From positions 2,176,001 to 2,240,000 of the forward strand of contig CBDBCY010000004.1 of assembly GCA_965203555.1 (NCBI GenBank): 64,000 bases of DNA, read 5' to 3'. Below, piece after piece: positions 53,510 through 62,064 of the stretch. Numbering within the stretch: the stretch's first letter is position 1; each line of letters begins with the position of its first letter. The notes beneath the pieces are model-generated. The model did no database searches and had not been told where the DNA came from. It was given only the letters and a program-made list of their open reading frames with translations. Both the position numbers and the translations under genes were made by a program. Source of the DNA: Acidimicrobiia bacterium (GTDB taxonomy: Bacteria > Actinomycetota > Acidimicrobiia > Spongiisociales > ZC4RG35).

Positions 53510-53785
53510 ATGGCTATTGTCTACTCAACCTACGAAGCCAAGGCACGGTTCTCCGAGTTACTGAGACTGGTGCGGGAAGGTCAGACGGTCACCGTCTCCT
53601 ACCGGGGAGAACCTGTCGCCGAGGTGAGACCAATCCGGCAGGCGCCCAAAAGCATCCTCGAGCGACTCGATGATCTGCAGCGCCGCGGTATTGTGGTTCC
53701 CTCCCAAGGGGGCCGGGCGCCCCTTCATCCGGTGGTACGCCGGGAGGGCGCCCTTGACCGTTTCCTGGCTGAGCGTGATGGATGA
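53510..53785 (+). CDS. vapB: Phd/YefM family antitoxin
   Basis: YSTYEAKARFSELLRLVREG..V.VSYRGEPVAE. Confidence 0.9.
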   Translation: MAIVYSTYEAKARFSELLRLVREGQTVTVSYRGEPVAEVRPIRQAPKSILERLDDLQRRGIVVPSQGGRAPLHPVVRREGALDRFLAERDG

Positions 53786-54180
53786 GTGTTGCATACATCG
53801 ACACCTCGGCTGTGGTGGCTGTCGCCTTTCATGAGCCGGGTGCCCGCGCCGTTTCCGGTATGCTGGTTAAGTTTTCTCGTCTCATCTCTTCGAATCTCTT
53901 GGAAGCCGAATTGCGCGCCGCTTTCGCTCGAGAAGATGTCCAAGTTGAGGACCGTCTTCTGTCTGGGATCGATTGGGTCTTACCGGATCGACCGCTCTCT
54001 TCCGAATACAGGGCGATATTGAGTGTGGGCCGCCTGCGGGGCGCCGACCTGTGGCATTTGGCCACCGCCCTATATATCAGTAGAGAGCCCGCTCGCATCT
54101 CGTTCATTACCCTCGACAAAGCTCAACAGGCGGTAGCCGCAAGGCTTGGATTCAATTCCCCGACGATGTCTCCGCAGTGA
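53782..54180 (+). CDS. vapC: PIN-domain toxin VapC
   Basis: AYIDTSAVV, LLEAEL, LRGADLWHLATA, FITLD; ATGA overlap. Confidence 0.9.
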   Translation: MSVAYIDTSAVVAVAFHEPGARAVSGMLVKFSRLISSNLLEAELRAAFAREDVQVEDRLLSGIDWVLPDRPLSSEYRAILSVGRLRGADLWHLATALYISREPARISFITLDKAQQAVAARLGFNSPTMSPQ

Positions 54181-58061: not shown

Positions 58062-58991
58062 GTGATGGCGACGATCGCCTACCCACCCATTCCGGTATGG
58101 GAAATCGGGCCCTTGAGGTTTTCCCTGCACGGAGTTTTCGCCGCGGTGGGTTTCTTCGCGGGTTTTTGGTTGGTGGCCCGCATGCTGGAAGCAAGAGGTT
58201 TCGATCCGGCCGGATTCCACTCGTTGGCGGTCTGGATACTGGTGGGAGGGCTGCTGGGGGCCCGCCTTCTCACCGCGCCTGCCGCCCTACTGGACGGAGC
58301 GGGGTTGGAGGCGCTCAACCCGGTGGTGGGCAACTACTCGATCATGGGAGGATTCGTGGGGGGAATAGTGGTGGGAGTTTGGAGAATTCGCCGTCTCAAT
58401 CTTCCTCTCCTGCCGATTCTTGACTTGGCGGCCTTCGGCCTGGCAGCGGGCACCTTCGTGGGTCGGATTGGCGACCTCGCCATAGTTGAGCATCTTGGCC
58501 GGGCAACTGAAGCCGCCTGGGGCTATGAAGTGCGACCCGGCTATGACCTGGCGCCCCAGCACAACGGGTTGGAATGTACGGTGGCAGAGGCAGGCCCGGA
58601 TGGAGTCTGCGGGATCTACCACCATGTCGCCTTGTATGACATGCTGGGCGCCGGGGTGCTCCTGCTGGTGCTGTGGCTGGTATACGGAAAAGCGCCGTTG
58701 CGGTACGGCCAGGTGTTTTCTTTGTGGGTCGTGTGGTACGGCCTCCAGAGGTTTGTGCTGGACTCGCTCAGGTTTGGGATGGGAGACGCCACGCTCGGAG
58801 GATTCACCTGGAATCAGGTAAGCGCACTCGGTGGTGCGGTGGTGGGGTTGGCTCTCTGGATGTGGTTTGGCAAGCGCCGGCCAAGGGTTTCCTCCGAGGT
58901 GGATGAGGGTATGGGGGCCGTGTCCACGGGTACTTCCGAAGAGAACTCACCAGTGGAGGACCATTTGCGCCATCCGCCCGATGCGGAGTAA
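58062..58991 (+). CDS. lgt: Prolipoprotein diacylglyceryl transferase
   Basis: IGPL..SLHG, GLLGARL, S..GG, GRIGD, LYD, Y...RF..D.LR, TWNQ. Confidence 0.85.
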   Translation: MMATIAYPPIPVWEIGPLRFSLHGVFAAVGFFAGFWLVARMLEARGFDPAGFHSLAVWILVGGLLGARLLTAPAALLDGAGLEALNPVVGNYSIMGGFVGGIVVGVWRIRRLNLPLLPILDLAAFGLAAGTFVGRIGDLAIVEHLGRATEAAWGYEVRPGYDLAPQHNGLECTVAEAGPDGVCGIYHHVALYDMLGAGVLLLVLWLVYGKAPLRYGQVFSLWVVWYGLQRFVLDSLRFGMGDATLGGFTWNQVSALGGAVVGLALWMWFGKRRPRVSSEVDEGMGAVSTGTSEENSPVEDHLRHPPDAE

Positions 58992-59003: not shown

Positions 59004-59066
59004 ATGTTGGCAGAAGGGTTTGACCGCTATTTCGTCTTTACCGGGCCCCGGCTCCGGTGGGCATAG
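59004..59066 (+). CDS. Putative attenuator leader peptide MLAEGFDRYFVFTGPRLRWA
   Basis: 20 codons including F, Y, F, F, W, using TTT/TAT codons that are uncommon at this GC content. It lies directly upstream of a terminator and the DAHPS-CM gene. Confidence 0.7.
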   Translation: MLAEGFDRYFVFTGPRLRWA

Positions 59067-59092
59067 CGCGGACCAATAACCGGCAAGCGCCT

Positions 59093-59122
59093 GACCCGGA
59101 GCCCGGCTCCGGGTTTTCTTTT
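59093..59122 (+). terminator. Rho-independent terminator (attenuator) upstream of DAHPS-CM
   Basis: Stem ACCCGGAGC/GCTCCGGGT followed by TTTCTTTT. The alternative pairing partner GGCTCCGG (59050-59057) lies inside the leader ORF. Confidence 0.8.
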
Positions 59123-59160
59123 GCCCGAGGCCGGTTCCCGACATAAACAAGCTAAGAGGT

Positions 59161-60216
59161 GTGGCAGTGGAGAGACAAGCAACCAGGGAAAGCCGATCAA
59201 AACGCACCGTGGTAAAGGTGGGGGAGACCAGAATCGGACGCGATCCGTTTCCGGTGATAGCCGGACCCTGCGCAGTGGAAAGCGAAGAACAGATCAACAC
59301 GGTGGCGGAAACCGTGGCCGACAATGGGGCTTCGATCTTGCGGGCGGCGACTTACCGGCAGGGTCACTCTCCCTACTTCTTCCGTGGTTTGAGACTTGAG
59401 GGAGCGAAACTCCTGGCCGAGGCGGGAAGGCGGGTGGACTTGCCTGTGGCAATGCCGATTATGGAAGAGCGGGAATTGGAGGAGGCGGGCGATCTGGTGG
59501 ATCTGCTGGAGATTCACCACGGGTCCATGCAGAATTTCGAGTTGCTGAGGGTGGCCGGTCGATCCCAGAAGCCGGTGATGCTTCGTCGCGGCTCCTCTGC
59601 GACACTCGACGAATTCCTGTGGGCGGTCGAGTACCTGATGGCCGAGGGTAACGACCAGGTTATTTTGGTGGAGCGAGGCATCCGCACATTCGGAGCGGGC
59701 CATCGCGACACGCTTGACATCACCGCAGTCCCGCAATTGAAGGAGATCTCCCACCTTCCGGTGCTGGTTGATCCGAGTCACGCTTCCGGGGGCGCTGAGC
59801 GAGTTCCACCATTGGCGCTGGCGGCCCAGGGAGTGGGTTCGGACGGGCTGATCGTCGAAGTCCATCCCGAGCCTGCCAAGGCGAAGACCGAGGGCCCTCG
59901 TCAGTTAGACCTAGTGGAGTTCGCCGAGTTGATGGTGCAGTTGGGAATCAGCCGGCTTCGTTCGAGGATCGATCTGGTGGATCGGGAGATCGTGCGACTG
60001 CTGGCCCGCAGGCAGCGGCTTTCGCTCAAGATCGGCCGCGCCAAGGCCGATCGGGGTTGGCCGGTTCAAAGTTCCCGGCGAGAAACGGTGTTGTTGGACG
60101 CGGTGCGTGAGGAAGCTGTCTTGAACGAACTCGACCCGGACCAGATCGAGGAACTGTTCAATGTGGTGCTGGAAGGATCGCGCCAGGCTCAACAGGATAT
60201 GCGTTCGGATGGGTGA
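59161..60216 (+). CDS. DAHP synthase (type I-beta-like, degenerate active site) fused to C-terminal AroQ chorismate mutase
   Basis: IAGPCAVE, MQNFELL, ERGIRTF, DPSH and EVH are present, but KPRT is replaced by RQGH. C-terminal LRSRIDLVDREIVRLLARR...IG.AK...RE...SR..Q. Confidence 0.88.
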   Translation: MAVERQATRESRSKRTVVKVGETRIGRDPFPVIAGPCAVESEEQINTVAETVADNGASILRAATYRQGHSPYFFRGLRLEGAKLLAEAGRRVDLPVAMPIMEERELEEAGDLVDLLEIHHGSMQNFELLRVAGRSQKPVMLRRGSSATLDEFLWAVEYLMAEGNDQVILVERGIRTFGAGHRDTLDITAVPQLKEISHLPVLVDPSHASGGAERVPPLALAAQGVGSDGLIVEVHPEPAKAKTEGPRQLDLVEFAELMVQLGISRLRSRIDLVDREIVRLLARRQRLSLKIGRAKADRGWPVQSSRRETVLLDAVREEAVLNELDPDQIEELFNVVLEGSRQAQQDMRSDG

Positions 60217-60299: not shown

Positions 60300-60372
60300 G
60301 GCCCCGTCGTCCAGCGGCCTAGGACGCCGGCCTTTCAAGCCGGTAACGCGGGTTCAAATCCCGTCGGGGCTA
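60300..60372 (+). tRNA. tRNA-Glu (anticodon TTC)
   Basis: Acceptor stem GGCCCCG/CGGGGCT, anticodon arm CCGGC-CTTTCAA-GCCGG, T-arm GGTTCAAATCC. CCA is not encoded. Confidence 0.95.
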
Positions 60373-60405
60373 CCGCTGCTGCGAGAGCGTCCAAGCGGGG
60401 ACGGT

Positions 60406-62064
60406 CTATTCCGACGCAGTTGTAACGTAGTGGGTTCCTCGCTTGGTGCCTCGCATTTCCAAAACGCCCGCCCCGAGGAGTTCTTTCAGCAGACCCAGCG
60501 CTTGAAAACGGGAAACCCCTAGTCGTGAACGCAGGGACCGGTTCGTTACGGGACCCTCTCTTGCCATTTTTAGCACCTCGGACCTCATTTCGCTTTTGTT
60601 CAGGGGTACCCGGGAAGGGGGCGTTATCGTGCGAGCGAGACGGTACCGTGCTCCTCCTTTGATGCCGTCTTGTTCCAGGAAGCCCGCATCGCGTAGCCTG
60701 TGAAGGCTCTGGCGGGCATTGTGGCTATCAACATCGAGCAACCGTCTAGTGTAGGCGTTGGTTAACTCGGCACCGCGGGCGGCCTCGACCAGGACGCGCC
60801 GATCTACTGCTCTGAGTTGGCCCCGGGCCTCCTGTTCTCGTACCCATGCCCGTTCTTCTGGAGCTACGGGACTCTCGATGGGCAGGCGGACCGTCACATG
60901 ACCGGTTGTTTCTTCGGCAAAGACAGGCTCGGCTCTGAGGTCTGCAGCCATTTCGTCGAAGATGACCCGTATGCCACGACCAGCATCCTCGGCCATGCGA
61001 AAGTGGCGCAACGTTTGGATAACGACCCTGTTCCTTGCGGAATGCGATGTTCGGAGGTTGTCTATGGTTATTGGGTCTATTAGGCCACCAGGGGAGGTGA
61101 CCTCAACTCCTTGAGGTGTCACGTGGACTTCGACTGCCGACCCTGACAGCTGGTAGTCACGATGGGCGACGGCATTGGCCAAGGCCTCTCTTACTGCCCT
61201 GGTGGGAAGGCGGGGCAATTCGTAGGCATTGAGACCTACCACAACGAAGTCAATACCGATCTGCTCCACTATCCAGGATGTTGCTTCTCGCACCTGGTGG
61301 GCAGGGGTCCCTGATATTACGACTCGCCGGTCGTACTCCTGGGCCCCCTGTTGGTAACGAAAAAGCTCAATGTAACATTTACCGAGGGATTGTGGTGCTT
61401 CTGGGACAAGGTAGAGGGCACCGGCATGGGTCAAGGCGACATCGTGACCCTGCTGCATGGCCAACCGGCGTTGGATCAGGACATCCGAGAGGGCTGCTCC
61501 GTGCTTTGGCCCGATTTCCAGAGCTGTGCATAACTCAATGGCGAGAGTGGGGTCGACATCATCAATAGACCACCGTGATGGTCCGCTGTCAAACCCTAGA
61601 AGTGATCGTTGGTTCATCAAGCGCCGGAGATGTTCTCCCTTGAGTGCCAGGTTCTGCTTTCCCCTGCGGACCAAAGGCCTGCCGTCCGAGGTTTGAGCGA
61701 TGCCCTGCCGCCGGTCTGCAACGGAGATGACCGTAAGGCGGACCTCCCCTACCAAGACCTCATTCAGCTTGACCTGTCCTGGCGACTCGATCTCGTTGAT
61801 GGTCTCCCAGAGGTCCTTCTCTAGCCCCGCATCGAGGGGCTTGTCGATAGGCTGTCCTTGTCTATTGACTCCGATCATGATCACCCCGCCCTCGGCGTTG
61901 GAAAAGGCCACAATGGCCTCTTGGATCGGCTTGCGGCTTGATCCCGACTTCCACTCCACATGCTGGCCCTCGTCAGGGAACTGCTCTGCGAACTCTTCCG
62001 CAGTCATGAAGAGCGTTTGGTCTATGCGCTCAACCCATCGCCAAATATATGCAGGACTTCTCAC
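60406..62064 (-). CDS. AlbA_2/Schlafen-domain ATP-binding protein with HATPase-like and winged-helix domains
   Basis: EGQHVEWKS...AFSNAEGG..IGV, REALANAVAHRDY, SPGG, RN..., AEDAGRGI, two C-terminal wHTH-like segments (G.KGGARY, GTKRGTHY). Confidence 0.88.
   Translation of the reverse strand: MRSPAYIWRWVERIDQTLFMTAEEFAEQFPDEGQHVEWKSGSSRKPIQEAIVAFSNAEGGVIMIGVNRQGQPIDKPLDAGLEKDLWETINEIESPGQVKLNEVLVGEVRLTVISVADRRQGIAQTSDGRPLVRRGKQNLALKGEHLRRLMNQRSLLGFDSGPSRWSIDDVDPTLAIELCTALEIGPKHGAALSDVLIQRRLAMQQGHDVALTHAGALYLVPEAPQSLGKCYIELFRYQQGAQEYDRRVVISGTPAHQVREATSWIVEQIGIDFVVVGLNAYELPRLPTRAVREALANAVAHRDYQLSGSAVEVHVTPQGVEVTSPGGLIDPITIDNLRTSHSARNRVVIQTLRHFRMAEDAGRGIRVIFDEMAADLRAEPVFAEETTGHVTVRLPIESPVAPEERAWVREQEARGQLRAVDRRVLVEAARGAELTNAYTRRLLDVDSHNARQSLHRLRDAGFLEQDGIKGGARYRLARTITPPSRVPLNKSEMRSEVLKMAREGPVTNRSLRSRLGVSRFQALGLLKELLGAGVLEMRGTKRGTHYVTTASE

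Follow-up and report, generated by a model that had tools for sequence, protein, structure and literature searches.

An order of Acidimicrobiia carries a conserved fusion of a pseudoenzyme to a chorismate mutase (CM), in which a type I-beta DAHP synthase (DAHPS) barrel with an eroded active site is followed by an AroQ domain. The fusion is real, and its barrel-then-AroQ architecture is in itself already known. Judged by the residues it has lost, the barrel very probably no longer makes DAHP, and the best explanation for its retention, on which we find ourselves nearly evenly divided, is that the dead barrel co-assembles with a separate, ACT-fused DAHPS (ACT-DAHPS) and tethers the CM to it.

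The window analyzed here is the whole of a 64,000-nucleotide stretch of one genome of this order. The fusion gene lies at 59161..60216 on the plus strand, an open frame of 351 aa that is intact, as originally predicted. Translation probably begins at the GTG at 59167, since AAGAGGT stands 6 nt upstream and homologs start with M-E-R-K at residue 3. Structure alignment, an AF2 model, and residue comparison place the TIM barrel at residues 8-261 (59182..59943, plus strand), and Pfam, the AF2 model, and residue alignment place the AroQ CM domain at residues 263-346 (59947..60198, plus strand), the Pfam matches themselves being DAHP_synth_1 at 22-261 and CM_2 at 266-345. The two domains are joined without a linker at a conserved turn, L261-G262-I263, which is invariant or nearly so and does not vary even in g33, the genus with the most erosion (genera and families are given by g and f codes). 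Sequencing error as the source of the substitutions, a possibility raised together with the original prediction, is rejected: orthologs with 81-94% identity are present in 16/16 congeneric genomes, and in contigs from two runs of two studies (sponge and coral metagenomes by record) the gene is free of indels. A decaying pseudogene is likewise rejected by the open frames and low dN/dS.

All of the predicted substitutions were recovered in an alignment to four solved I-beta enzymes (5j6f, 1vs1, 3nvt, and 4grs): RGGAF/YKPRTSPY becomes RAATYRQGHSPY, QIGARN becomes EIHHGS, KRG becomes RRG, and SD becomes TE. By residue, in numbers that are those of PMC6362186 plus one, the barrel has lost K66 (to R), P67-R68-T69, Q117 (to E), R121 (to G), K142 (to R), and D244 (to E), with RQGH standing in place of the KPR(T/S) motif. 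Passages of PMC6362186 list R68, T69, Q117, and R121 among the E4P or PEP ligands, R68 and T69 being ligands of E4P; the E4P site (R68, T69) and three PEP ligands (Q117, R121, K66) are thus gone. Of the PEP-ligand set R61, K66, Q117, R121, K142, and R172, R61 and R172 are retained and the other four are changed. The metal-ligand set keeps C37, H207, and E233 and has its Asp replaced by Glu244, and R182 and the ERG motif are also present, which bears out the expectation that the Cys, His, and Glu ligands and ERG would be retained. The substitutions are not ordinary variation, because the lost residues are present in 77/77 canonical I-beta barrels of other phyla (T69 in 75/77).

The fold itself appears undamaged. 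The best structural matches are 45-50% identical to the barrel, the AF2 model of the fusion protein has a mean pLDDT of 90.4, and the predicted barrel superposes on 1vs1 with Z 40.0 and an rmsd of 1.5 over 254 residues, a homologous and intact (beta/alpha)8 fold. Also retained are the barrel-barrel contact residues Y72, G76, Q124, F126, E157, Y158, N164, R175, F177, and H198, the interface residues and elements being drawn from one AlphaFold model of a distant Porphyromonas enzyme (PMC12202928).

The CM domain has the three-helix AroQ fold by both Pfam and AF2, and its catalytic residues are kept as predicted, all seven (R267, R284, K295, R307, E308, S340, and Q344) matching R11, R28, K39, R51, E52, S84, and Q88 of the E. 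coli CM; E. coli Asp48 is not kept (S304). Across the 105 eroded loci described below, six of the seven are present in 105/105 and S340 in 103/105. These polar residues are also kept by regulatory AroQ domains. The genome, which is 95% complete, has no PF01817 match other than the fused CM and no PF07736 (AroH) match. From the residues, the sole copy, and the leader that precedes the gene, we infer that the fused CM makes prephenate from chorismate.

That leader is a 20-codon ORF at 59004..59066 (plus strand), seen in translation and in a DNA alignment of 8 loci, with a Phe/Tyr cluster at F6, Y9, F10, and F12. A predicted antiterminator arm lies within it at 59050..59057 (plus strand; fold of 59040-59112, z -2.92) and is conserved, and an intrinsic terminator-like hairpin with a 10-bp stem and a U-tract follows at 59093..59122 (plus strand; fold of 59004-59130), its stem invariant in 8/8 aligned loci. 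In fold predictions that mask the first codons, the antiterminator arm base-pairs with the terminator's 5' arm. The sequence thus combines a short ORF bearing regulatory codons with a terminator and antiterminator predicted to be mutually exclusive, and Phe/Tyr shortage would stall the ribosome in the leader and raise expression of the fusion gene. The Phe/Tyr leader is a known kind of switch and fits a gene of the Phe/Tyr branch. E. coli pheL is a ribosome-mediated attenuator of an aromatic amino-acid gene, and like it the leader here has regulatory codons in a short ORF, alternative hairpins, and a terminator; unlike it, the fusion-gene leader mixes Phe and Tyr codons and belongs to no Rfam family, the leader/terminator region having returned no Rfam match. 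A similar short ORF stands upstream of 101/116 fusion loci, 2/40 ACT-DAHPS loci, and 0/6 g33 loci. In the single RNA run over the window, coverage falls on the tRNA only. CM-PDT-DAHPS triple fusions with intact barrels (L052, L053, L055, L056, L057, and L273-L275) are preceded by a Phe/Tyr-rich leader of another kind, which ends in FGA.

That tRNA, a tRNA-Glu at 60300-60374, is directly downstream of the fusion gene and is followed on the opposite strand by an ORF with AlbA_2 and RecG C-terminal domains (60406-62064), possibly an insertion at the tRNA. Upstream, 58062-58991 encodes a divergent prolipoprotein diacylglyceryl transferase (Lgt) that falls below all NCBIfam cut-offs, and two short ORFs at 53510-54180 resemble, by eye, a Phd/YefM-type antitoxin and PIN-domain toxin pair.

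A search for a second DAHPS in the genome found one further I-beta enzyme, the ACT-fused DAHPS at G000:C4:2880653-2881666 (L001:8654-9667), 0.65 Mb from the fusion gene and beside what reads as a prephenate dehydrogenase. It retains KPRT and all basic PEP ligands. The ACT-DAHPS of the order has its own peculiarities, with G128D, Q182R, and E298D (a metal ligand), all at or near the active site, in 40/40 copies versus 0/77 canonical enzymes. The 95%-complete genome has no type II DAHPS match, and it encodes dehydroquinate synthase, chorismate synthase, and prephenate dehydratase; DAHPS catalysis in this cell is probably the work of the ACT-DAHPS. In every genus checked that is without an active I-beta gene, a type II DAHPS is present (g12 6/6, g139 3/3, g39 3/3, g56 2/2, g33 6/6, g55 2/2, and g144 1/1), which suggests that type II is the working enzyme there. 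In genera g9 and g41 (L281, L284, L286, and L287), a CM-PDT-DAHPS triple fusion takes the place of the dead-barrel fusion, and the ACT-DAHPS of these four loci lacks the acidic metal ligand, with IVMH instead of xDVH.

The fusion is present in 140/251 genomes of the order. With E-value thresholds set at score gaps for each gene, 132 genomes have both fusion and ACT-DAHPS, 8 the fusion only, 21 the ACT-DAHPS only, and 90 neither, counts in which kin are not independent. Six of the 8 fusion-only genomes belong to g33, one (G272) has an ACT gene after all, and one is 90% complete. Among the 21 ACT-only genomes, 17 are in family f9 and 3 come from fragmented bins, with both genes present in their congeners. 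The 3 fusions sampled from f9 are all intact, and 10/13 f9 genomes searched have no AroQ match. Named homologs of the fusion are all from Acidimicrobiia, and at E<=1e-75 no match was found outside the order in 201 genomes of the class, a result of that threshold and not an absence. We left out of the counts L003 (a duplicate), L093 and L094 (no family code), L113 (an unrelated fusion), and L034 (G010:C15), an f10-type copy on a 3 kb contig in a bin of the source genus that is probably a contaminant.

A complete active site remains in 10/115 aligned fusion loci, in families f6, f8, and f9, and the other 105 are eroded. Among these 105, Q117 is kept in 2, R121 in 4, D244 in 8, K142 in 15, K66 in 17, C37 in 47, H207 in 53, and R61 in 105; the corresponding count for R68 (2/105) is circular, because absence of KPR[TS] was the criterion for counting a locus as eroded. 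The losses are specific to families: f1 keeps Cys, His, and Glu, f7 and f10 have lost Cys and His (f10 also R172), the eroded barrels of f2 lack all four metal ligands, and f6-g147 lacks Cys and keeps Asp. Within the source genus the substitutions are nearly fixed, and the replaced E4P-phosphate loop varies freely across genera. Selection on the barrel is nevertheless purifying, with a dN/dS of 0.075 in the source genus (123/136 pairs usable) and of 0.07-0.11 in six other genera, including genera without metal ligands. This combination of strong constraint with family-specific decay of the active site is best read as a barrel kept for structure.

On trees built without active-site columns, the fusion barrels form one clade (97/82), separate from the ACT clade (100/99), and erosion occurred once on the barrel+CM tree and 1-3 times on the barrel-only tree. 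A single clade of fusion barrels, the 10 intact loci, and so few erosions indicate that the ancestral state was an active, bifunctional enzyme like that of Prevotella. Grouping the eroded barrels with the ACT clade, as expected of a recent ACT-DAHPS duplicate, is rejected (AU p 0.0002); grouping all fusion barrels with the ACT clade is neither supported nor rejected (AU p 0.31).

In g33 (6 genomes), the ACT enzyme is gone, no active I-beta enzyme is present, and the DAHPS is of type II. Of 48 positions that hardly vary either among canonical enzymes or among the eroded barrels of f2, g33 has lost 12, comprising 9/20 inside barrel-barrel interface elements versus 3/28 outside (Fisher p 0.016), the elements being those named in the Porphyromonas model, that is, in a distant enzyme. 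Several of the changed positions vary freely among the six genomes, and the junction to the CM is retained. Compared with other f2 genera, divergence in g33 is 1.73-fold faster in the barrel, 1.19-fold in the CM, and 1.11- to 1.15-fold in three neighboring genes; a fourth neighbor (cyoE-like, 16 pairs, partial) is 1.6-fold faster. The g33 barrel has a dN/dS of 0.17, from only 2/15 usable pairs. In a control genus, g152, which has type II together with the ACT enzyme, a set of 11 residues that g33 has lost is present in full, a descriptive comparison only, as the 11-residue set was picked after inspecting g33. The converse test looked for interface decay in 6 ACT enzymes of fusion-less f1 genera and was not significant (7/51 versus 5/85, p 0.13). 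Positions 145/154 on the barrel-barrel face change size in opposite directions, being mostly P/S and W in eroded barrels, F and N in ACT enzymes, and L/M and M in canonical ones, and could be a complementary pair.

Genera g39, g55, and g56, the nearest to g33 by neighboring genes, and g144, from another family, have type II and no I-beta gene, and at the same locus they carry a stand-alone CM with no barrel. The stand-alone CMs of f2 nest within the fused-CM clade (SH-aLRT 93), a topology which indicates that in f2 they came from the fusion by barrel deletion; barrel deletion probably also gave the stand-alone CMs of f11 and f4.

Taken together, the co-occurrence of the two genes in 132 genomes, the decay of the barrel face in g33, the g152 control, and the barrel-deleted relatives are what a heteromer predicts. 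In such a complex, a mixed oligomer would form through the normal I-beta barrel-barrel face, the CM dimer could be stabilized or activated within it, and the CM, once bound to prephenate, could control the active barrels in trans, the way a fused CM does in cis in Geobacillus. The same evidence has other readings: the interface loss comes from one lineage, g33, in which the leader has been lost too, so it could also follow from regulation being lost altogether or from the decay of a face used in homo-oligomers, and co-loss of the fusion barrel and the ACT gene can follow from redundancy when a replacement gene arrives. The ACT enzyme also stands without the fusion in f9 and f4, which implies that a dead subunit is not needed there. 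The 0.65 Mb between the two genes, the non-significant converse test, and the Prevotella and Porphyromonas fusions, which work as homodimers, also count against the heteromer. Since g33 still keeps its barrel under selection, some role independent of the partner must exist, and a smaller role in cis, with the barrel packed on its own CM, probably coexists with the heteromer.

The main rival makes that partner-independent role the whole story, with the dead barrel kept as a self-contained scaffold for its CM, in cis or as a barrel homodimer, conferring stability and a low Km and never meeting the ACT-DAHPS. Passages of PMC12202928 report that once the domains of the Porphyromonas enzyme were separated the Km of the CM went up from 19 to 207 uM, and that in its model the barrel-barrel interface lies within a homodimer; the fixed junction and the retention of the barrel in g33 without an I-beta partner point the same way. 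Against this, stand-alone CMs arose by barrel deletion in f2 and probably in f11 and f4, which argues that the CM can do without the barrel, and a scaffold leaves unexplained that the oligomer face has decayed precisely where the ACT enzyme has been lost. We consider this alternative possible but on balance doubtful. The original prediction of a pseudoenzyme barrel on an intact-looking CM is thus supported by the second DAHPS, the sole CM, and the purifying selection, and its proposal of a scaffold for the CM is plausible as this main rival.

A second alternative, which we think unlikely, is that the remodeled pocket still binds a metal together with PEP or some other anion and in this way adjusts the CM, as a relic of the feed-forward activation known from Prevotella, whose CM is activated >2-fold by PEP/Mn/E4P together according to passages of bioRxiv 2021.03.29.437529. 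The barrel does present C37, H207, E233, an acidic residue at 244, R61, R66, R142, R172, and R182, and R61 is present in all of the eroded loci. The loss of Cys and His in f2, f7, and f10, and of R172 as well in f10, at similar dN/dS in the genera measured, means that sensing cannot be the reason for retention across the whole distribution, although it could hold for f1.

The original prediction also offered an aldolase with a new substrate, with the new histidines forming a different site, for example to join PEP to an unphosphorylated aldose. Three metal ligands are kept in the source organism, the E4P-phosphate loop is replaced, and the substitutions are nearly fixed in the genus, all of which favor such an enzyme. 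Neither the KPRT lysine nor the GAR arginine is left, however, the leader points to Phe/Tyr synthesis, and sister families are under similar selection and differ in which of the Cys, His, Glu, and Asp ligands they have lost, with the loop free to vary across genera. The His119/His120 pair occurs in 16/105 eroded loci, all in the source organism's genus. A new His site or aldolase is therefore rejected as an account of the family as a whole, and with ligand losses that differ by family and histidines peculiar to one genus we regard it as very improbable even in a narrower form. A weak but real DAHPS is hardly more credible, since the conservative nature of K66>R, K142>R, and D244>E and a protein that clears the NCBIfam cut-offs for PRK12595 and TIGR01361 have to be set against the loss of R68, T69, Q117, and R121, near-invariant in the 77 canonical enzymes and E4P/PEP ligands in passages of PMC6362186. 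That a predicted dead barrel clears DAHPS cut-offs and is annotated by sources as a DAHP synthase is a concern for annotation.

Returning to the heteromer, a broader version would have most families of the order running a two-gene DAHPS-CM heterocomplex, with an altered-site ACT catalytic subunit and a dead, CM-bearing subunit whose level is set by the attenuator, a generalization toward which we lean more to doubt than to belief. If it is true, then amino-acid shortage would shift the subunit mix and with it the regulation of the entry enzyme of the shikimate pathway. DAHP synthases are textbook examples of modular allostery and, in the papers cited here, homo-oligomers of active barrels; if a dead barrel does form a heteromer with an active enzyme, the entry and the branch point of the pathway would be linked in a new way. 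Whatever its function, the intact, half-eroded, partner-less, and barrel-deleted states found within one order form a series for studying how pseudoenzymes originate and are retained. Our literature search, which left most subscription journals outside its reach, found no study of a dead DAHPS-CM fusion or of a dead DAHPS as a heteromer subunit.

The closest known systems are the CM-linked DAH7PS enzymes of Prevotella nigrescens and Porphyromonas gingivalis, which, in passages of bioRxiv 2021.03.29.437529 and PMC12202928, share the order of barrel then AroQ, often supply the sole CM, have a CM that depends on its barrel, and are homodimers needing no partner. Their barrels are active and are followed by an 11-residue linker, whereas the fusion described here has lost its ligands, has a 3-4 residue turn, and shares its genome with a second DAHPS. 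A degenerate I-beta barrel on a CM-bearing protein has a precedent in Shewanella, where passages of PMC1173090 remark on an aroA I-beta 'pseudogene' fused to aroQ-pheA and assign it no function, in another domain order and another lineage. We also observed eroded I-beta barrels on CM-PDT or CM proteins of other lineages (P0177, P0180, P0182, P0215, P0239, P0265, and P0258), and dead DAHPS barrels on CM proteins seem, from such sequences, to recur across lineages.

A physical link between the entry enzyme of the pathway and that of its branch point, along with the cross-regulation proposed here, would be shared with two further arrangements described in passages of bioRxiv 2021.03.29.437529, the non-covalent DAH7PS-CM complex of Mycobacterium and Corynebacterium, in which the CM binds the active type II enzyme directly, and the DAH7PS of Geobacillus, Bacillus, and Listeria, in which an N-terminal CM gates an active barrel. 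The fusion would differ from both in that the proposed adaptor is a dead barrel. Heteromers of a pseudoenzyme with an active enzyme are represented by plant PDX1.2/PDX1.3 (passages of bioRxiv 717082) and by the trypanosome prozyme and deoxyhypusine synthase, where a dead paralog co-assembles with the active enzyme (PMC5201418 and PMC3663545). These are eukaryotic, experimentally shown, and carry no second enzyme, whereas the heteromer proposed here is so far only inferred and, if it exists, would be a bacterial one whose pseudoenzyme subunit also carries the enzyme of the branch point.
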